Part shown: positions 2,424 to 9,645 of the stretch, piece by piece
How positions within the stretch are numbered: position 1 is the first letter of the stretch
Layout: every line of letters starts with the position of its first letter
Virus record (IMG/VR): IMGVR_UViG_3300045988_137238
Location: 1 to 37,046 of that record
Length of the DNA: 37,046 nucleotides
Origin: a virus
Strand: one strand, 5' to 3'
Notes under the pieces: model-generated
Told to the model about the DNA's origin: nothing
Seen by the model: only the letters and a program-made list of their open reading frames with translations
Databases searched by the model: none
Program-made: the position numbers and the translations under genes

Positions 2424-3252
2424 ACTCACGCCAGAGAACTACTACTCGCTAGAAACTGATTGGGAATATATGAGCTTCTCTCAATTCAAGAACTTCAAGG
2501 AATGTGAGGCTAAGGAGCTAGCCCGATTAAAGGGTGAATGGGAACCAGCCAAGAAGAAATCAACAGGAGCCGATCCACTTATTCTCGGAAACTACGTTCA
2601 CTCTTACTTTGAAAGCATTGTAGCTCACGAAGCCTTTGTTGAAGCTAACAAGAAAGAGCTAATTTCCTCACGAGGCGCAACAAAGGGCAAATTAAAATCC
2701 AGTTACCAGCTAGCCGAAGAAATGATTAAGACGCTGGATAACGATAAACTATTCGATTTCATTTATACGCCCGGAAAGAAGGAAGTTATCGTGACCGGGC
2801 AAATCAACGATCATGCTTGGAAGGGAAAAATCGACAGCCTGGTTTTAGCTAAGGGTTACTTTTGCGACCTCAAGACGGTTGATGATATTCACAAGAAGCA
2901 TTGGGATCCAGCTAACCGAATTTGGACGAATTTCATTGAGGATCGGGGTTACATCATGCAAGCGGCGATCTACCAAGAGTTGATCAAGCAAACCTTTGGT
3001 AAGCAGTGTCAACCGTACTTGTTCGCGGTTAGCAAGCAAACACCGCCAGACAAGGGTGCCTTTGACTTTGAGGATACGGACACACAGTACTTGATGAAAG
3101 AAGCCCTGGAGGAAATCAAAGAGAAGCAGGATCGCTTCTGGCAGGTGATGAACGGCGAAGTTGAGCCTAAGCATTGCGGAAAGTGTGAGTATTGTCGATC
3201 AATGAAAGAGCTAGCTGCTTTTCAGCACGTAACAGATATTGAGGTGGACTAA
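2416..3252 (+). CDS. PD-(D/E)XK exonuclease (ExoVIII/DUF3799- or Cas4-like, C-terminal Cys cluster)
   Basis: SD aaggagg. GKIDSLVL...YFCDLKT gives a D...D-x-K motif, with QAAIY and a C-terminal CGKCEYC. Overlaps the recT stop. Confidence 0.7.
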
Positions 3253-3774
3253 TGATTAATCGAGTGGTGTTAACAGGTCGATTAACTAAGGACCTGGAAT
3301 TGAAATACACGCAAAATGGAACGGCAGTTGCCCGGTTTACCTTAGCAGTTAGTCGGCAGTACAAGAATAAACAGACTGGCGAGCGAGAAACGGATTTTAT
3401 CTCGTGCGAGGTTTGGCGTCAGCCAGCCGAGAACTTAGCTAAGTATGCCGGCAAGGGATCGTTGATTGGTGTTGATGGTCGGATTCAGACCAGCCACTAC
3501 ACCGACCGAGACGGAAAAGAGGTTTATCGAACGGATGTCAGGATTGATTCATTTGCCCTACTGTCATATCGGAATAATGACGCCAACCAGAGCGAGCAAA
3601 CCGGCAAATTACCAAGCTAATGTCAATTTCAATGCGCCTCAGGAGCAACCTAATCTACCGCCATACGGTGGGATGTACGCCAACGGGACGCCAGCTAATG
3701 ACGCTATCAATGGCCAAACGATTGACAGGATGGAAACCCATCAGCCGGCTGACATAACAGACTTACCTTTCTAG
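3252..3774 (+). pseudogene. ssb: Single-stranded DNA-binding protein with interrupted frame (+1 shift needed near 3597-3608)
   Basis: Frame 1 (3252..3620) encodes a typical OB fold: [33 protein letters not shown]...[31 protein letters not shown]. The Q/N/P-rich linker and the canonical SSB tip ...DITDLPF* are in the +1 frame, ending at 3774. Confidence 0.75.
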
Positions 3775-5101: not shown

Positions 5102-5117
5102 TGTGAGGAGGGCAACG

Positions 5118-5582
5118 GTGAGATTATTTGAGGTTATAGACCCAGATCAAACGGCTCAGAGCGTAGCAGACTTCTTAAGAGGCAAAGGGCACTATCGGTA
5201 CAGAGGCTATCCAAAGCTACTAGAGGATGAAGCGGTGTTCGGGATGGTGAGATCTCCGGTCGGCGACATCACGGGGATTCATGGTTCAAATGGCAATCGG
5301 TTTGAAGAAACGATGATTGCTAAGGCACATTGTCGTTTGGCGATTAGTTGTGTGACTGATGCGATTAAGTCGTGCTTGCCAGCACAGCAAACGATTCTGA
5401 ACGAGCGTTACATAAACGGCGCGAAACGTGAGACCGTCATGCAGATGGTCTTAATCGGTGGTAACGACCAGTATCAAGAGGCGGACATCACAGCACGGAC
5501 TCGATTCGCCGCAGCCCTAGATAAGTTTGTGGCGATCAGAGGGTGCGAAGATCTGATTCCGCCGATTCAAGTGTGGAAGTAA
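5118..5582 (+). CDS. ArpU-family-like late gene transcriptional regulator
   Basis: GTG 5118 lies 6 nt after gaggagg (5105-5111). Size (~154 aa) and position (last early gene before the packaging module) are typical for ArpU/RinA-type regulators of Firmicutes phages. The sequence match is judged from memory only. Confidence 0.45.
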   Translation: MRLFEVIDPDQTAQSVADFLRGKGHYRYRGYPKLLEDEAVFGMVRSPVGDITGIHGSNGNRFEETMIAKAHCRLAISCVTDAIKSCLPAQQTILNERYINGAKRETVMQMVLIGGNDQYQEADITARTRFAAALDKFVAIRGCEDLIPPIQVWK

Positions 5583-5717
5583 TTCAAAATCCGGAAAAAA
5601 TGCGGAAAAAACCCGGAAGCCGCCGGGATAGATCTGTGCAATAATTGCTATAGTGAGACAAGTGGGGAAATTAAGTTCATGGCCACATTACTCACTACTC
5701 TTTACCTCTTAAATTGG

Positions 5718-5737
5718 TTGATATGATTGCATATCAA
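5718..5737. repeat. Perfect 8-bp inverted repeat upstream of the tRNA-like element
   Basis: ttgatatg-attg-catatcaa. It could be an operator or an RNA hairpin. TTGATA also resembles a -35 box. Confidence 0.6.
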
Positions 5738-5750
5738 TCGCATATTAGCA

Positions 5751-5806
5751 GCGGATATAGCTCAATGGTAGAGCTTCTGATCTCGGTTCGATTCCGGGTA
5801 TCTGCG
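5751..5806 (+). ncRNA. tRNA-like element lacking the anticodon arm (truncated tRNA / tRNA mimic)
   Basis: The layout is: acceptor GCGGATA, then TA, D-arm GCTC-AATGGTA-GAGC, linker ttctgat, T-arm CTCGG-TTCGATT-CCGGG, acceptor TATCTGC, then G. The acceptor stem is 7 bp with one G-U pair. The D-loop and T-loop are canonical. Only 7 nt sit where the 17-nt anticodon stem-loop plus variable loop should be. Confidence 0.7.
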
Positions 5807-5960
5807 TTGAGAGTAGCACAATCAACTCTTTTGCCTTTCGGCTTAGGCATAGAAAGGCAGATGGTACGGTCATCCCTATACTTCAGGTGGGGATGCTAAG
5901 GTTCCACTCCATAGGCCGTCATTGTCCGCAATGACGTTAAACTACATATCACCCATTCAG
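5807..5960 (+). ncRNA. Highly structured non-coding segment (consecutive hairpins) downstream of the tRNA-like element
   Basis: Hairpins: gagagt/actctt (5809-5830); tgcctttc/gaaaggca, 8 bp perfect (5832-5859); gatg/catc (5860-5874); cctat/atagg enclosing ggtgg/ccact (5875-5915); cgtcattg-tccg-caatgacg, 8 bp perfect (5917-5936). There is no credible ORF here. Confidence 0.5.
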
Positions 5961-5990
5961 AGTCTAGCTATAATAGCTAGACTTTTGTAT
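5961..5990 (+). terminator. Strong rho-independent terminator closing the non-coding unit
   Basis: Perfect 10-bp stem agtctagcta / tagctagact with loop taa, followed by ttttgtattatttt. The hairpin apex (stem top plus loop) also spells TATAAT (5969-5974). Confidence 0.7.
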
Positions 5991-6011
5991 TATTTTAGTT
6001 GGGTGATTTAA

Positions 6012-6506
6012 ATGAAAGAATATGGAAATTTACTCATTAGTTCAGTAATACCTCTGTTAATCTCTGGGATTAGTACCATAGGTGGGATTTGGGGTGCGAC
6101 TATTCAAGCTAAAAAATATGAAGATTCAAAACGATCTAAGGTGGAATCTTATCAAAAAATATTAGAGGTAGTTGAACCTTTTAATGCTTTATATATTTTA
6201 ATTCGAGATTGTAGGTGGGCTGAAGCAAGAAATGTTTGCTTTAACGGGGCAGTGGATGAGCTGGAAAGTAAATTACAATCAGGTACTTATGTTTTGCTAA
6301 TTCCAGGAGGGGTATTAGAATCTACAGAGAGGATGTTGAATGAAATGGTCGAAATTGTAAAATTAGAAGAGCAAATGGGTAAAATTAAACCTGATTATAA
6401 CAAAAGATATAATCCAACTATCCTTGATGAAAAAATGGGAAACTTAGATAATGACTATGAACAATATATTTCTGAGATAAAGAAAAAATACAAATTATTT
6501 AGATAA
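6012..6506 (+). CDS. AT-rich orphan protein with N-terminal TM anchor (moron candidate)
   Basis: 164 aa. LLISSVIPLLISGISTIGGIWGATI is a TM helix and the rest is helical and charged. Composition is visibly AT-rich compared with the flanks. Its own terminator follows. Confidence 0.6.
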   Translation: MKEYGNLLISSVIPLLISGISTIGGIWGATIQAKKYEDSKRSKVESYQKILEVVEPFNALYILIRDCRWAEARNVCFNGAVDELESKLQSGTYVLLIPGGVLESTERMLNEMVEIVKLEEQMGKIKPDYNKRYNPTILDEKMGNLDNDYEQYISEIKKKYKLFR

Positions 6507-6519
6507 AGACCGGTTAATT

Positions 6520-6549
6520 AAGTCAGCTTAACGGCTGGCTTTTTATTTT
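6520..6549 (+). terminator. Rho-independent terminator after the moron ORF
   Basis: aagtcagc-ttaacg-gctggctt stem (one G-U pair) followed by tttatttt. Confidence 0.55.
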
Positions 6550-6577
6550 GGAAAGGGCGCGAAAGGAGATGGCAAAC

Positions 6578-7084
6578 ATGGGCAAGGTACACCAATGCGG
6601 CGAGATCAGATGTCATAGGATCATCCCTTTTGATCAACGATACTGTGACGTGCATGCCAAACTGCATGCACATGATGCCTATCACAACGTGTCACACAAG
6701 CAACGGCTCGAGTCGTATAAGACGTACAACCGTGAGCATCGTGACCAAGTAGCCAATACTTTTTATCACAGCAAGGAATGGCAGCACGTGCGTGACTACG
6801 TGGTCAATCGTGACATGTATGCATCGGGAGTGTCAGGTATCATACTGACTGATCATGATCTGATCGTTGACCACGTTGTGCCAAGACGCTTGTGCAAGGA
6901 TCCGTTGGACACCGACAACTTGTGGTGCCTGAGCAGACGTGAGCACCTTGCCAAGACAAAAATGGAAAAACATATCGCTGACAAACCAAATGGTGATAAT
7001 GTGCTGAAACATCTAAATCGCCAAAAATGGGCCGTATACATCGATCGACAGCTTGCAAGGGGAAAACGCCGAGGCGGTCGCTAG
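6578..7084 (+). CDS. HNH endonuclease (packaging-associated)
   Basis: ATG 6578 lies 9 nt after aaggag. An N-terminal Cys/His cluster is followed by LIVDHVVPRRLCKDPLDTDNLWCLSRREHLAKT (H-N-H motif). It sits immediately upstream of terS, as in HK97-like cos phages. Confidence 0.8.
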   Translation: MGKVHQCGEIRCHRIIPFDQRYCDVHAKLHAHDAYHNVSHKQRLESYKTYNREHRDQVANTFYHSKEWQHVRDYVVNRDMYASGVSGIILTDHDLIVDHVVPRRLCKDPLDTDNLWCLSRREHLAKTKMEKHIADKPNGDNVLKHLNRQKWAVYIDRQLARGKRRGGR

Positions 7085-7216: not shown

Positions 7217-7744
7217 ATGCCACGTAAAATGAAGGTAACCAGAAGCCCAGACAACAAAGCCTATCAAAATCGGCGCACCGAGATGGTCGAAAAGGCGACT
7301 GAAGACCTGCAACCGTTGCAGACGTCACCACCAAACTACATGAAGGGCACGATTGCGGGCCGAGCCTGGCAGAGAATCACGCCGATTCTGCGTCAAAGCA
7401 CGATTATCAAGAACGCCGATCGCTCAACTGTAGAGGCTCTCTGCTCGGCAATCGCACTGTATCGACTTGGCTTTGATGATGTGCAGGAAAACGGCATTCA
7501 GACGCCAATCTATAAGAGTGTGCAGAACAATCGTGGTGAAATTATCGATCGTGATTTTGTGGGTTTTAAAAAAAATCCCGCTGTATCTACGATGGACGCC
7601 GCAATCAGGCAGATACGCTCGCTATCGTCTGAGCTTGGCTTGACGCCAACCAGCCGGGCATCCCTGCTCTCTCTCACTACTGACAGCGACGATGATGACG
7701 TGCCAAGCCTAGCAGACGTCTTGTCGGGTGGTGATGGCTGGTGA
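7217..7744 (+). CDS. terS: Terminase small subunit, P27 family
   Basis: SD aaggag. ...GRAWQRITPIL...ADRSTVEALCSAIALYR...KKNPAVSTMDAAIRQIRSLSSELGLTPTSRASL matches the P27 TerS pattern. Confidence 0.85.
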   Translation: MPRKMKVTRSPDNKAYQNRRTEMVEKATEDLQPLQTSPPNYMKGTIAGRAWQRITPILRQSTIIKNADRSTVEALCSAIALYRLGFDDVQENGIQTPIYKSVQNNRGEIIDRDFVGFKKNPAVSTMDAAIRQIRSLSSELGLTPTSRASLLSLTTDSDDDDVPSLADVLSGGDGW

Positions 7745-9645
7745 TGCGCAAGTGGGATTTAACCAGAAAAGGCCAGACGGTCGAAAAAGCCTATGAAACC
7801 GAGAAAAACGCTGGCAGTTACAATGAGATCTTTAAAAAGTATCGCGATCCGGCGACCAGATATGCATTTGCCGTGCTTGAAGGTCGGCAGTTAGCCGGTA
7901 AAAAGATCAAGCTTGACGCTTTTCGGCATCTGCAGGACCTAAGACGGCAGACGGAAGACCCCGATTTTAACTATCACTATGATTTGGACAAATGTCGGGC
8001 AATCATCAACTACTCTAAGCTGGTCCCTGACGTTAATGCCGGCAAGCCCTTGCCATTGATGATGTGGGAGCAAAAGATTCTATGTTCAGTCATTGGCTGG
8101 CGTGATGATAATGATCAGCTCCGCTACATGCGGGCGATTTTTTCCGTTGCCCGTACCAACGGTAAGACCTATCTGGCTACGATTTTGATGTCGTTCTACT
8201 TTTTGGTGGAATCAAAAGGCCAGATGAACCACGACTACCTGTACACTGCACCGGTTACAAGCCAATCGCAGAAGGGTTTCCAGTACATGCAGTCGTTTTT
8301 TACCAAGCTTTCAACGTTGCCGGCTTTTAAAAAGCTGTTTAAACAGCAAGAAATTGTTGTCCTGCATGATGTGATCCTGTCACGGAAGCTACACAACCGC
8401 CTGCTGCGGATGTCGTATAAGTCCGGCCAATTTGACTCGCTCCACTGTCAGTTTGCGGTGGGCGATGAAGTCGGGGATGACCATCATATTGGCTCTATTA
8501 TCGAAGGTAACGGCAAGATCACGTCCGGGCAAGGCCAGGAACCTAACCATTGTTTTTTGCAGGTTTCAACGGCTTATCCGGACAGCAACTCACAGTTTTA
8601 CAAGGACCAACAGATGATGGAAGAAGTCATGGAGCGCGACTATGACCGCTCTTTGGACGACAACCTGTGCATGGTCTGGGAACAGGACAGCCTTGATGAA
8701 ACAAATGACCCAGAGACATGGGTCAAGTCCAATCCAATTTTGGATTTGAGCCCCGAAAAGCATGATCAGTTGATGAAATCGCTGCTCTCCGAGCGTGATA
8801 CCAAGATGGCGAACGGCTCTCTGCCGGAATTTCAAAACAAATCGCTCAATATGTGGCTGCAAGTTAAGCAGAATACGTATCTGGACCTTGATGACATCAA
8901 TCGGGCAGCGGTTGATGACGCTCCGATCGACATTGACGGCCGCGAATGCTATGTGGGCTTTGACAAGTCCAATTTCAGCGATGACACGTCGATTGCTTTT
9001 GTTTTCCCGTATCTGGACAACGGTAAGCCGCGCTACTACATCAAGCAGCATAGCTGGGTGCCACTCGCACGGGCCCAGAACAACATCGTTTTGAAGGAAA
9101 AACAGGACGGTATCAACTATCGAGACGCCGAAAAGCATGATTTTTGTGACATTGCCAAAAACGACTATGGCTATATTGATGACGGCGCGGTCTACGACTG
9201 GCTGATGGCCTATGCGGAGGCTCATAAGCTTAAAGTCAAATATTTCTGCTACGACAAGTGGGGCCTTTCCAAGATGATCGGCTGGATTGAGCAAAAAACC
9301 GACTGGAACACGATGCCGGTTAAAAACGTCATCCAAAATCTTAACGAACCGACCGTTGATCTGCGCAAGCAGTTTGACACGGGCACGGTCAAATATGACC
9401 ATGATCCGATCATTACGTACTCGCTTAAAAATGCCGTGCTGTATGGCAACAATAATGGCGTAAAAATCGATAAGGAAAAGGCAACGACTAAGATTGACTT
9501 TGTCGATGCGTTGATTGACGCGTGGTATACGGCAATGTTTCACTTTGACGATATCAGTCTGGAGAAATTAGACGCTAAAAACCCGTTCTCGGGGATGTCA
9601 AATGGCGATATCAACGACTACTTTACCAATGATTTTTCATTCTGA
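7741..9645 (+). CDS. terL: Terminase large subunit (Terminase_1 type)
   Basis: 634 aa and overlaps the terS stop. A Walker-like VARTNGKT is present, with a nuclease half containing VGFDKS...DDTSIAF and IDFVDALIDA. Confidence 0.85.
   Translation: MMRKWDLTRKGQTVEKAYETEKNAGSYNEIFKKYRDPATRYAFAVLEGRQLAGKKIKLDAFRHLQDLRRQTEDPDFNYHYDLDKCRAIINYSKLVPDVNAGKPLPLMMWEQKILCSVIGWRDDNDQLRYMRAIFSVARTNGKTYLATILMSFYFLVESKGQMNHDYLYTAPVTSQSQKGFQYMQSFFTKLSTLPAFKKLFKQQEIVVLHDVILSRKLHNRLLRMSYKSGQFDSLHCQFAVGDEVGDDHHIGSIIEGNGKITSGQGQEPNHCFLQVSTAYPDSNSQFYKDQQMMEEVMERDYDRSLDDNLCMVWEQDSLDETNDPETWVKSNPILDLSPEKHDQLMKSLLSERDTKMANGSLPEFQNKSLNMWLQVKQNTYLDLDDINRAAVDDAPIDIDGRECYVGFDKSNFSDDTSIAFVFPYLDNGKPRYYIKQHSWVPLARAQNNIVLKEKQDGINYRDAEKHDFCDIAKNDYGYIDDGAVYDWLMAYAEAHKLKVKYFCYDKWGLSKMIGWIEQKTDWNTMPVKNVIQNLNEPTVDLRKQFDTGTVKYDHDPIITYSLKNAVLYGNNNGVKIDKEKATTKIDFVDALIDAWYTAMFHFDDISLEKLDAKNPFSGMSNGDINDYFTNDFSF

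Follow-up and report, generated by a model that had tools for sequence, protein, structure and literature searches.

An anticodon-less tRNA-core element as a possible processing handle in the late-transcript leader of a Limosilactobacillus prophage

Mitochondrial transcripts reportedly follow a 'tRNA punctuation' principle, and t-elements have reportedly been described in the mitochondria of plants. These t-elements are non-decoding tRNA-like folds that are embedded in longer transcripts next to coding regions, where RNase P and RNase Z use their acceptor/T-arm shape to create mRNA ends. Together, they provide the best functional analogue for the elements considered here, namely M1, M-last and the truncated elements that precede terS and scaffold genes. 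However, t-elements are organellar and usually loose mimics, whereas M1 resides in a phage and is a near-perfect tRNA core in which D arm and elbow are canonical and only the anticodon arm is gone, and its cleavage is presumed. A second parallel is found in the TMERs of murine gammaherpesvirus 68, in which a viral tRNA-like element is followed by pre-miRNA hairpins, and in MALAT1 with its mascRNA, which we take to be Rfam family RF01684. In both cases, a tRNA-like part is fused to structured RNA, cut by tRNA enzymes and furnished with CCA, without being used in translation. Unlike M1, to which they bear no sequence relationship, these RNAs are eukaryotic, depend on internal RNA polymerase III promoters or nuclear processing and retain an anticodon-like stem.

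Phage late and mRNA-linked tRNAs include ileZ-argN-argO downstream of pR' in Stx phages, the thrU-tufB operon and the T4 cluster with its stable RNAs C and D. Like M1, late-transcript phage tRNAs occupy the slot between the regulatory and the late/packaging genes, and they are co-transcribed with mRNA and released by RNase P and 3' processing, as M1 would be, but they are either decoding tRNAs or, in the case of T4, stable RNAs of unknown role, whereas M1 supplies no codon reading. The tRNA-like domain of tmRNA and the bacterial Y RNA YrlA, whose structure is described in a preprint (bioRxiv 10.1101/312249), combine an acceptor, a T arm and a D-loop elbow without a decoding arm and are substrates of tRNA enzymes. 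In tmRNA, the tRNA-like part is interrupted by an mRNA-like region with a tag reading frame and pseudoknots, and in YrlA it is joined to a Ro-binding helix, whereas M1 has nothing in the arm's place.

Architecture of the late-transcript leader

The window, meaning the whole 37,046-nt stretch of DNA analysed, belongs to a Limosilactobacillus prophage that carries the tRNA-shaped M1 element just 5' of its packaging genes. The first-pass annotation had correctly located the region between regulatory and packaging genes, with the activator gene upstream and the HNH and terminase genes downstream:

5103-5582 (+): late transcriptional activator gene, 159 aa (phrog_248 'transcriptional activator', E = 3.5e-17)
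5591-5628 (+): four direct repeats, CCGGAA / GCGGAA / CCGGAA / CCGGGA, with spacings of 11, 11 and 10 nt (sequence reading)
5646-5654 (+): putative promoter P1, extended -10 element TGCTATAGT, no -35 (sequence reading)
5718-5737 (+): perfect 8-bp hairpin TTGATATG / CATATCAA, arms 5718-5725 / 5730-5737 (repeat search; fold z = -4.0)
5751-5806 (+): M1, tRNA-core element with acceptor stem, D arm and T arm (Rfam tRNA, 45.4 bits; minimum-energy fold)
5809-5830 (+): 6-bp hairpin GAGAGT / ACTCTT (fold; alignment)
5832-5859 (+): perfect 8-bp hairpin TGCCTTTC / GAAAGGCA, arms 5832-5839 / 5852-5859 (repeat search; fold)
5860-5921 (+): M-last, second tRNA-like module, no D arm (minimum-energy fold, a three-way junction)
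5917-5924 / 5929-5936: perfect 8-bp stem (repeat search)
5922-5944 (+): 23-nt motif TTGTCCGCAATGACGTTAAACTA (pattern search of viral contigs)
5948-6007 (+): late-gene leader stem ATCACCCA (5948-5955) / TGGGTGAT (6000-6007) (fold -24.6 kcal/mol, z = -5.7)
5961-5986 (+): terminator-like hairpin, perfect 11-nt arms 5961-5971 / 5973-5983 (terminator scan; repeat search)
6012-6506 (+): first ORF past the leader, 164 aa, no family assignment (ORF list; domain searches)
6548-7084: HNH endonuclease gene (domain and phrog searches)
7217-7744: terminase small subunit gene (domain and phrog searches)
7741-9645: terminase large subunit gene (domain and phrog searches)

The region is a composite of the activator gene, an activator-type promoter, an optional two-module tRNA-like cassette, the 23-nt motif and a stem that hides the ribosome-binding site (RBS) and contains a nested terminator. 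Its 331-nt stretch from 5662 to 5992 folds better than any of 100 shuffled versions (z = -5.2). An earlier view of this stretch as one discrete ncRNA gene with its own terminator gives way to that of a mosaic: its middle part is M-last, the proposed hairpin at 5917-5936 overlaps the 23-nt motif, which is widespread in unrelated contexts, the terminator lies inside the RBS-sequestering stem, and the same promoter-leader-terminator layout is found in relatives that carry no tRNA-like module (L066, L071). The structural elements on which that view was built were nevertheless recovered, including the perfect 8-bp inverted repeat ahead of M1, the downstream hairpins, two of them with perfect 8-bp stems (5832-5839 / 5852-5859 and 5917-5924 / 5929-5936), and the closing perfect-stem terminator. 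The latter was placed at 5959-5985 by the terminator scan (12 pairs, four of them G-C, and a 3-nt loop) and shows the G+C-containing hairpin and the following T run of an intrinsic terminator, with the T run being short and interrupted (TTTTGTATTATTTT); a terminator is also present at this position in the module-free relatives L066 and L071. According to the predicted fold, the surrounding leader stem sequesters the RBS of the first late gene, and anti-RBS/terminator/RBS layouts of other sequence exist in two relatives (L003, L005).

The activator gene, which had no match in a Pfam search and whose homologue in the deposited phage LFP01 is annotated as 'transcriptional regulator', invariably lies directly 5' of the repeats and the promoter. 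A search through it for distant relatives met a narrow family (13 clusters, identity of at least 59%), which nevertheless led to the type B, C and D leaders. The repeats are conserved in all relatives of this activator, other activator families (L079, L089) have their own repeat sets in the same place, and we presume that they serve as activator binding sites. A metagenome scan with the CCGGAA-repeat pattern yielded mostly low-complexity chance matches and only six relevant loci (L035, L066, L068, L070, L071, L065). The -10 element of P1 is invariant in type A and type C relatives and was missed by a sigma-70 scan because it has no -35; we infer an activator-dependent promoter with a predicted start near 5661-5663. 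The ORF at 6012-6506 is variable cargo across relatives. A 61-aa ORF with a TTG start (5714-5899) that runs over the tRNA-like modules is probably spurious and was set aside.

Of the hairpins next to M1, that at 5809-5830 (helix 5) is paired in 98% of alignment cells, with one pair alternating between G-U and G-C, that at 5832-5859 (helix 6) in 98.8%, with one-sided changes in two pairs, and the hairpin at 5718-5737 keeps its stem even in L006, where its loop is inverted (GATTGC -> GCAATC). The second module, M-last, is built as follows:

5860-5865 / 5915-5920 (+): acceptor
5871-5877 / 5889-5895 (+): long arm
5896-5914 (+): T-arm-like part with the degenerate loop TTCCACT, followed by A5921

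It is homologous to module M3' of type B relatives, and RNAalifold detected compensatory changes in five pairs, all within its T stem. In some relatives, M-last is decaying, with a broken acceptor (L007 and L008) or the loss of G53 (L005), and in others only its 3' half is present (L079, L142 and L150).

M1 itself comprises the following parts:

5751-5757 / 5799-5805 (+): acceptor stem, 7 bp, with G3.U70
5758-5759 (+): U8 A9
5760-5763 / 5771-5774 (+): D stem
5764-5770 (+): D loop AATGGTA
5775-5781 (+): linker TTCTGAT, 7 nt
5782-5786 / 5794-5798 (+): T stem
5787-5793 (+): T loop TTCGATT
5806 (+): discriminator G

M1 corresponds to a tRNA that has lost its anticodon stem-loop and nothing else. 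It matches the Rfam tRNA model RF00005 from end to end (model positions 1-71) with 45.4 bits, where 29 is the gathering score; the E-value is 1.1e-6 when the whole window is searched and 1.3e-8 when only the region is, and the alignment swaps 18 model positions of the anticodon arm for 3 nt. The linker corresponds to N26, one further nucleotide and a 5-nt variable loop, leaving about 1 nt in place of the arm (positions 27-43). The remaining canonical features are in place, with a 7-bp acceptor and discriminator, a D arm with G18 G19, a T arm with a GTTCRANYC loop and a tertiary core that retains U8, A14, A15 with U48, G18 G19, G46, G53-C61 and T54-A58. No CCA is encoded, the trailer being UUG. 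Folded alone, M1 adopts exactly the tRNA-like three-helix shape as its minimum-energy structure (-18.0 kcal/mol), although the energy as such is unremarkable (z = -1.6; 11 of 200 shuffles fold equally well), and a custom armless covariance model scores it at 70.8 bits. The Rfam score and the fold thus confirm the tRNA-like element with acceptor, D arm and T arm recognized in the first-pass annotation, and the absence of an anticodon arm, with a linker of only 7 nt, agrees with its claim that the element cannot decode.

As had been anticipated, ARAGORN called no tRNA, nor any tmRNA, in the whole window. Since M1 lacks the anticodon stem-loop and is not called by ARAGORN, it does not qualify as a tRNA gene, despite its Rfam score. 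The tRNA family was the sole Rfam family detected, both in the window at the gathering threshold and in the interval 5560-6020 at E <= 10, and these searches returned no match to GOLLD or ROOL, RNAs of 500-800 nt that represent the large ornate RNAs which phages of this group were said to carry at this location. A one- or two-piece tmRNA was rejected on the same grounds (no ARAGORN call and no Rfam family at E <= 10), and no insertion separates the 5' half of M1 from its 3' half. A YrlA-type Y RNA was likewise rejected, with no match at E <= 10 and no domain where the anticodon arm would be. Such RNAs usually lie beside an rsr gene, whereas the genes around M1 encode the activator, the unknown ORF, the HNH endonuclease and the terminase subunits.

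Conservation and wider occurrence of armless elements

The same armless form of M1 is present in 10 distinct relatives, in which it constitutes the most conserved part of the region. Its mean pairwise identity is 98.3%, compared to 82-92% in the flanks, and only 4 of its 56 columns are variable, as opposed to 28 of 83 flanking ones (Fisher p = 1.9e-4). The sequences of the linker and the acceptor are conserved as well. By these measures, M1 would be under strong purifying selection. Fourteen of its 16 pairs are invariant among the relatives, so that covariation is uninformative on its fold, for or against. An exact-pattern search of 2.9 million viral contigs for an ancestor with an intact anticodon produced no match. 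Given the 10 armless relatives, the lack of an intact version in this exact-pattern search and the high conservation of M1, the suggestion that the element is a decayed phage tRNA or a deletion unique to this copy is not supported. G3.U70 was considered as an alanine identity element and dismissed, as the window and L121 are the only ones to have it; the remaining relatives have A3-U70, so alanylation is not a conserved property.

At the same spot, related phages carry other armless modules or none. Three modules of unrelated sequence occupy the same leader position, M1, M1' (type B) and M1'' (L025/L026), each of which folds as an acceptor stem, a small 5' hairpin and a T arm, without an anticodon arm. 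Rfam searches of the relatives returned only sub-threshold matches to mascRNA and tRNA-Sec, including one of M1'' to the mascRNA model (28.8 bits, E = 0.086). The cassette is dispensable, since the type C relatives L066 and L071 do without any tRNA-like module, and LFP01 contains a broken chimera in which M1 is joined to the 3' end of another module. Mosaic joints within T loops occur in LFP01, L079, L142 and L150.

The design is not confined to this group. A genome scan that allowed 4-12 nt between the D stem and GGTTC identified nine armless elements in unrelated bacterial phyla, which score 31-55 bits against the Rfam tRNA model without being called by ARAGORN; all nine have gaps of 10-12 nt, so that linker lengths are narrowly distributed. 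A scan for gaps of 13-22 nt, meant as a control to show the absence of intermediate arm lengths, instead uncovered at least 120 viral loci with shortened anticodon arms, which makes arm length a continuum rather than a matter of two classes. ARAGORN called 10 of 120 such loci and left 110 uncalled, and some elements with 17-19-nt linkers may be able to decode. Among 83 unique shortened-arm elements, 64 keep both the acceptor and the T stem; 53 of these 64 show a canonical 15-48 pairing and 56 have G46, and positions 15 and 48 covary across the set. CCA is encoded in only 1 of the 64, as opposed to 57 of 230 ordinary tRNAs from the same loci, and the trailers are U-rich, with T as the first base in 40 of the 64 elements. 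Genes of three different terminase-small-subunit families, head scaffolding genes at 27 loci and a head-tail adaptor gene are preceded, at a distance of 20-90 nt, by elements of independent families.

It is possible, if on balance doubtful, that many phage lineages share an undescribed class of anticodon-less or arm-reduced tRNA-core RNAs, which keep core, acceptor and elbow, lack an encoded CCA and are selected either as counterparts of t-elements that punctuate or mature late (packaging, head) transcripts through RNase P/Z, or as non-cleavable mimics that titrate tRNA-directed defences or tRNA enzymes. M1 would be an extreme, fully armless member of this class. The set has apparently not been described so far: the literature searched, whose incomplete coverage leaves room for an earlier description, contains no account of armless phage tRNA-likes. 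If the proposal is true, temperate and virulent phages exploit the host tRNA-maturation machinery as an RNA-cutting system by placing stripped tRNA cores in their late transcripts, or else release such cores as small tRNA mimics. In either case, late-gene control in phages, and possibly the tRNA-centred arms race with bacterial defences, would gain a further layer, and natural minimal substrates of RNase P and RNase Z would be at hand. The proposal would also explain 'tRNA-like' matches that are rejected by tRNA finders and ignored or mis-scored in annotation, even though the Rfam tRNA model scores them above threshold.

Possible roles of M1

With its anatomy and conservation, an optional and modular cassette and a design that recurs upstream of late genes in unrelated phages, M1 fits best, among the three roles originally put forward, with that of an RNase P/Z handle. 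We would give an even chance to the idea that it is a non-decoding tRNA-core module in an optional late-leader cassette, which is cut by host RNase P and RNase Z, severing the leader and releasing a small RNA. The cassette, consisting of a hairpin, M1, two further hairpins and M-last, would be inserted in the late-transcript leader, downstream of an activator-dependent promoter and ahead of the late-gene leader. RNase P and RNase Z are not known to require more than an acceptor/T-arm helix and an elbow, and RNase Z is inhibited by an encoded CCA. M1 has such a helix and elbow in a non-decoding fold, as is typical of t-elements, and it would preserve what these enzymes and the CCA-adding enzyme read, namely the elbow formed by the D and T loops and a 7-bp acceptor that stacks with the T arm. 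Host tRNA-maturation enzymes would cut before G5751 and after G5806, and M-last would likewise be cut after A5921. These cuts would sever the long structured leader and set new RNA ends ahead of the late genes, while the released product would be a stable, compact RNA of tRNA-like shape, about 56 nt long or 59 nt with CCA, that does not enter decoding. Its location is in keeping with this role, as M1 lies between P1 and the late genes and members of the class are found 20-90 nt upstream of terS, scaffold and adaptor genes, with the transcript boundaries being predicted ones. Transcription from P1, cleavage by RNase P/Z and any benefit to the late genes are presumed on the basis of sequence comparison.

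Several observations sit less comfortably with a handle. The cassette can be absent (L066, L071) or broken (the LFP01 chimera), two or three handles in tandem seem redundant, and M-last is drifting, with a degenerate T loop in the window. In a gut-phage family, the element comes 2-3 nt after a terminator, so that its transcription needs read-through. A generic cleavage handle would not need every nucleotide of M1 to be conserved, including the linker and the acceptor, and this conservation may indicate that the released RNA meets a sequence-specific partner and thus has a function of its own.

One such function, which we consider unlikely, is that of a decoy or sponge, in which the released armless RNA binds and titrates a factor that recognizes tRNAs by their body or acceptor end. 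Such a factor might be EF-Tu, an enzyme that modifies or charges tRNAs, or a host defence enzyme directed against them. Without an anticodon loop, such an RNA could neither be inactivated there nor decode, and the idea is compatible with processing by RNase P/Z, differing only in the target of selection. Conservation of all 56 nt is typical of RNAs with sequence-specific partners, and the patchy distribution of the accessory cassette among otherwise related phages resembles that of counter-defence cargo. Moreover, several bacterial defences reportedly act on tRNA acceptor ends or bodies, including FaRel2 (PMC11559606), MenT (PMC7450476), Cas12a3 (PMC12851939) and Septu (PMC13096335), and phage tRNAs are reported to evade retrons and other defences (PMC11555353). 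However, no tRNA-related protein gene adjoins the cassette, and defences that cut the anticodon loop usually recognize that very loop, which M1 lacks. Nor would a decoy be predicted to recur directly upstream of terS and scaffold genes, and no such decoys are described in the literature searched.

Alternatively, the modules could be remnants of a phage tRNA cluster that have lost decoding and persist because they are recent or hitch-hike with the late promoter region. In L004, L009 and L121, M1 comes immediately behind a tRNA-Ser gene, which is genuine in L004 and L009, in a tRNA-type array, M-last has accumulated disruptive changes (the L007/L008 acceptor, G53 in L005, the TTCCACT T loop of the window), T-loop chimeras occur in LFP01, L079, L142 and L150, and type C relatives have no cassette. 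Such a relic is nonetheless quite improbable: conservation of M1 significantly exceeds that of its flanks, the anticodon arm has been removed precisely, with the tertiary-core nucleotides left in place, and M-last shows compensatory changes in its T stem. Furthermore, the design recurs in unrelated lineages with narrow linker lengths and 15-48 covariation, and unrelated armless modules replace one another at the same position.

Very little probability attaches to a cis-regulatory leader, in which the tRNA-like chain would control terminator read-through or translation of the first late gene by antitermination or attenuation, acting through RNA polymerase or a tRNA-sensing factor. The chain does follow an activator-type promoter and precede a terminator that is enclosed in the RBS-sequestering stem, and AGAGTAG (5810-5816), instead of forming the local hairpin, can pair with CTACTCT (5697-5703). 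However, type C relatives have no tRNA-like module although their promoter, leader, terminator and late genes are all retained, and the interval 5560-6020 has no Rfam match to a T-box or other cis-regulatory family at E <= 10. In L004 and L009, in addition, the cassette follows a tRNA gene rather than the promoter and leader, so that the long-range pairing partner is missing. A role at the DNA level, with the repeated T-loop and acceptor sequences serving as recombination or integration sites for module shuffling, satellites or integrases, is barely plausible: the mosaic joints inside T loops and the inverted hairpin loop of L006 would suit it, but recombination at short shared sequences is an expected by-product rather than evidence of purpose, each module has both acceptor strands and the RNA-type tertiary positions intact, which a DNA site could do without, all modules are oriented with transcription, and ORF, domain and phrog searches revealed no integrase gene nearby.

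A 23-nt motif upstream of phage genes

The 23-nt motif downstream of M-last represents a second lead, separate from the armless elements. It occurs once in the window, with 0 copies expected by chance, and in more than 119 viral contigs with unrelated flanks. A literature search that included the motif sequence itself found no description of it, within a coverage incomplete enough for an earlier one to exist. The motif is possibly a phage-specific promoter or operator, and an RNA processing site is conceivable as well. From its distribution, we judge that it is a widespread, highly conserved and directional pre-gene element of phages: 63 of 77 non-redundant copies are followed, at 25-208 nt, by a gene on the same strand that has a Shine-Dalgarno sequence, compared to 3 in the opposite direction, and its carriers include phages of Limosilactobacillus and Enterococcus.

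M1, a tRNA-like element in the late leader

The window represents a prophage of the Limosilactobacillus fermentum type, whose nearest deposited phages are JNU_P5 and LFP01, with JNU_P5 showing 93% identity across 83% of the intergenic region. The non-coding stretch that holds the tRNA-like element studied here, named M1, comprises 430 nt and is flanked by an activator gene and the late genes.

Features of the late leader and its neighbours (window positions)
5103-5582, upstream: activator gene (159 aa), matching phrog_248 'transcriptional activator'
5591-5628, directly 3' of the activator gene: four CCGGAA-type direct repeats with 11-nt spacing
5646-5654, after the repeats: extended -10 TGCTATAGT without a -35, the presumed late promoter (P1)
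5751-5806, + strand: M1
5860-5921, + strand, 3' of M1 and two hairpins: second module (M-last) with a 6-bp acceptor stem, a long arm and a T-arm-like hairpin, but no D arm
5922-5944: 23-nt motif TTGTCCGCAATGACGTTAAACTA
5948-5955 with 6000-6007: 8-bp stem enclosing the terminator (z = -5.7)
6012-6506, downstream: unknown ORF, the first late ORF
6548-7084, downstream: HNH endonuclease
7217-7744, downstream: terminase small subunit
7741-9645, downstream: terminase large subunit

The tRNA-like character of M1, proposed in the first-pass annotation, was borne out by the Rfam tRNA model, which matched from end to end with 45.4 bits (threshold 29; E = 1.1e-6 in a whole-window search). In the Rfam alignment, the 18 model positions of the anticodon arm are reduced to 3 nt. 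M1 retains, in tRNA numbering, U8, A14, A15, G18 G19, the C13-G22 pair, G46 and U48, as well as G53-C61 and T54-A58 in its T arm; in a tRNA, these make up the core and the elbow between the D-loop and the T-loop. Its 7-nt linker, TTCTGAT, consists of N26, a single further nucleotide and a variable loop of 5 nt, so that stem-loop 27-43 has been removed almost exactly. There is no encoded CCA, and the trailer starts with UUG. The acceptor pair 3-70 is G3.U70 in the window; since eight of the ten distinct relatives carry A3-U70, alanine identity is not conserved. As had been anticipated, ARAGORN reported neither a tRNA nor a tmRNA in the window. M1 is not a tRNA, because the anticodon arm was tested for and is absent, and tmRNA, Y RNA and GOLLD/ROOL RNA were likewise ruled out by ARAGORN and Rfam. 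M1 is a real and conserved element for which no curated family provides a matching explanation.

The perfect 8-bp inverted repeats were found where they had been placed previously (5718-5737, 5832-5859 and 5917-5936), and the terminator hairpin was confirmed at 5961-5983, with arms of 11 nt. The 331-nt stretch folds far more strongly than shuffled controls (z = -5.2); M1 folded alone adopts the expected shape with an unexceptional energy (z = -1.6).

Conservation and variation of the leader cassette

The armless M1 also occurs in phage JNU_P5, seven viral contigs and a further locus, L121, which disposes of the earlier suggestion of a unique decayed tRNA. The related possibility that relatives carry an intact tRNA found no counterpart either: a scan of 2.9 million viral contigs yielded no version with an intact anticodon arm that shared the 5' half and T arm of M1. 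In alignment A3, composed of ten distinct sequences, M1 has a mean pairwise identity of 98.3% (4/56 variable columns), compared to 86% for the hairpin before it (15/30), 92% for the inter-module hairpins (13/53) and 82% for M-last (36/63). It is thus more conserved than its immediate flanks (28/83 variable columns; Fisher p = 1.9e-4). Fourteen of its 16 pairs are invariant and, because M1 hardly varies, covariation has no power to test its fold. Over the whole proposed structure, 95.4% of the cells are paired, versus at most 48.5% with the partners slid, and five pairs have changed on both sides, all of them in the T stem of M-last. The latter module, which has its homologue in the last module of type B relatives (see below), shows these compensatory changes, yet also disruptive ones in some phages. 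In L006, the hairpin centre GATTGC (equivalent to 5726-5731), comprising a 4-nt loop and the flanking base pair, instead reads GCAATC, the reverse complement, with the stem intact, as though the loop had been inverted.

The view of the region as a single ncRNA gene was not upheld, as it proved to be a mosaic of promoter, tRNA-like modules, 23-nt motif and terminator. The layout of repeats and extended -10 is kept in all relatives of the activator, and at the equivalent position unrelated activator families bear repeats of their own; L079, for example, has AATCGGG, and L089 has repeated ATCGGAGT/GTCGGAC/ATCGGAC-type units. We infer from the sequence that P1 is an activator-dependent late promoter. 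In the predicted fold, an upstream segment base-pairs with the ribosome-binding site (RBS) of ORF 6012-6506 to form the stem enclosing the terminator, which would thereby sequester the RBS; relatives L003 and L005 display the same layout with different sequences. The content between P1 and the terminator varies considerably.

Leader content among relatives of the same activator
Type A: the cassette of the window (hairpin, M1, two hairpins, M-last)
Type B: three different tRNA-like modules (L023, L027, L028, L032, L070)
L025, L026: a third kind of armless module plus one type B module
Type C: no module at all (L066, L071)
Type D: unrelated structured RNA (L031, L033)

Read-through of the terminator seems to be required in type C, because P1 is the sole promoter candidate for the late genes. 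The type D RNA (~300 nt), located 3' of CCGGAA-type repeats, fills the same space between promoter and terminator ahead of the terminase small subunit gene and has no Rfam match, as tested for L033. In L004, L009 and L121, a tRNA-Ser gene (real in L004 and L009) precedes the cassette within a longer tRNA-like array. L121 contains at least five consecutive modules at 5150-5950 (- strand) ahead of the 23-nt motif, including D-arm-less and armless ones and a tRNA-Ser-like one with a shortened anticodon region. Moreover, chimeric broken modules are found in LFP01 (L002; 3161-3240) and, upstream of the 23-nt motif, in L079, L142 and L150, with joints falling inside the T loop (GGTTCGATTCC or GGTTCAACTCC). 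Collectively, the variants and chimeras indicate that the cassette is dispensable and that repeated T loops serve as recombination joints between leader cassettes. The three sequence-unrelated modules at the M1 position all fold into an acceptor stem, a small 5' hairpin and a T arm without an anticodon arm, which argues that the shape itself is selected at this position.

Shortened-arm elements elsewhere and their predicted role

A search of 185,579 species-representative genomes for an M1-type D arm followed by a T loop within 4-12 nt yielded nine elements, with hosts including Corynebacterium, Flavobacterium, other Bacteroidota, Cellvibrionaceae, Clostridiales and Poribacteria. They score 31-55 bits with the Rfam tRNA model, none is called by ARAGORN, and some adjoin real tRNAs. 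The same pattern with a 13-22-nt gap gave at least 120 loci in viral contigs, with ARAGORN silent on 110 of 120, so that arm length varies continuously; forms without any arm are less common, and decoding may persist in some of those with the longest linkers. Acceptor stems with at least 6/7 pairs and T stems with at least 4/5 pairs are present in 64 of the 83 unique elements among the matches listed. Among these 64, positions 15/48 pair as G-C (37 elements) or A-U (16 elements), 56 have G46, and 40 have T as the first trailer base; CCA is encoded in only one, compared to 57 of 230 ordinary tRNAs of the same loci. Independent families lie 20-90 nt upstream of three different terminase-small-subunit families (phrog_509, phrog_1889 and phrog_2606), and others precede head scaffolding genes (phrog_194, at least 27 loci) and a head-tail adaptor gene by the same distance.

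The features kept in M1 are those read by RNase P, RNase Z and the CCA-adding enzyme, and the anticodon arm, which it lacks, is the sole feature needed for decoding. Based on the kept features, the lack of encoded CCA, the U-rich trailers and the placement before late genes, M1-type elements are predicted to be entry sites for host tRNA-processing enzymes, whose cutting would sever the late leader, set RNA ends and free a compact tRNA-like RNA. This role, close to the processing handle considered in the first-pass annotation, is the best-supported interpretation of M1, with both transcription and cleavage being predicted. Alternatively, a sequence-specific partner may exist for the freed RNA, which would then act as a decoy or sponge, a reading favoured by the very strong conservation of every M1 nucleotide. 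For parts of the cassette, an origin as relics is still worth considering, given the drift of M-last and the patchy cassette distribution. In its predicted mode of working, M1 would come closest to plant mitochondrial t-elements and to the tRNA-like modules found in MHV68 TMERs and in MALAT1/mascRNA. Some phages place tRNA genes where late transcripts begin, the genomic slot that M1 also occupies. In the literature searched, with incomplete coverage, tRNA cores lacking the anticodon arm were not described for phages. M1, whose function is inferred, points to a broader class of elements and to a second conserved motif.

Several loci show additional arrangements. In the scaffold-gene family (L189, L202, L216), the truncated tRNA-like element has on its immediate 5' side a conserved hairpin, AACCCGG-GAAT-CCGGGTT, similar to the one preceding M1. 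Tandem arrays of armless or partial units occur in the Poribacteria MAG L018 (head-to-tail units of ~72 nt) and in the Bacteroidota MAGs L013, L015 and L017; in L013 and L015, neighbouring units are linked by pairing between the 3' acceptor strand of the first and the 5' strand of the second. In the loci L203 (1-3410 of a 180-kb viral contig) and L209, a truncated element (L203 2063-2106) is abutted by a CRISPR-like mini-array (2127-2377; 36-nt repeat, 66-nt period), with further arrays at 22-206 and 3094-3410. The next gene is a 484-aa ORF with an N-terminal sequence that looks TnpB/Cas12-like by eye only. A tRNA-like handle beside a phage CRISPR array may mark a site where the array transcript is processed.

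The 23-nt motif

The motif at 5922-5944, present in a single copy in the window, overlaps the last of the previously annotated hairpins (5917-5936). Its form TTGTCCGNRATGACRWTAAACTA was found in more than 119 viral contigs with unrelated flanks (loci L073-L186 in addition to the window), and Enterococcus phages are among its carriers. It is directional: a same-strand gene with a Shine-Dalgarno sequence follows 25-208 nt downstream in 63 of the 77 non-redundant copies listed, but in only 3 of 77 in the opposite direction. The motif may be a promoter or operator specific to phages or, alternatively, an RNA processing site. The literature searched, again with incomplete coverage, contained no description of it. 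Some contigs carry two to three tandem copies (L080, L086, L091). The motif is also seen 3' of upstream terminators and, in L159 and L181, 5' of tRNA genes.
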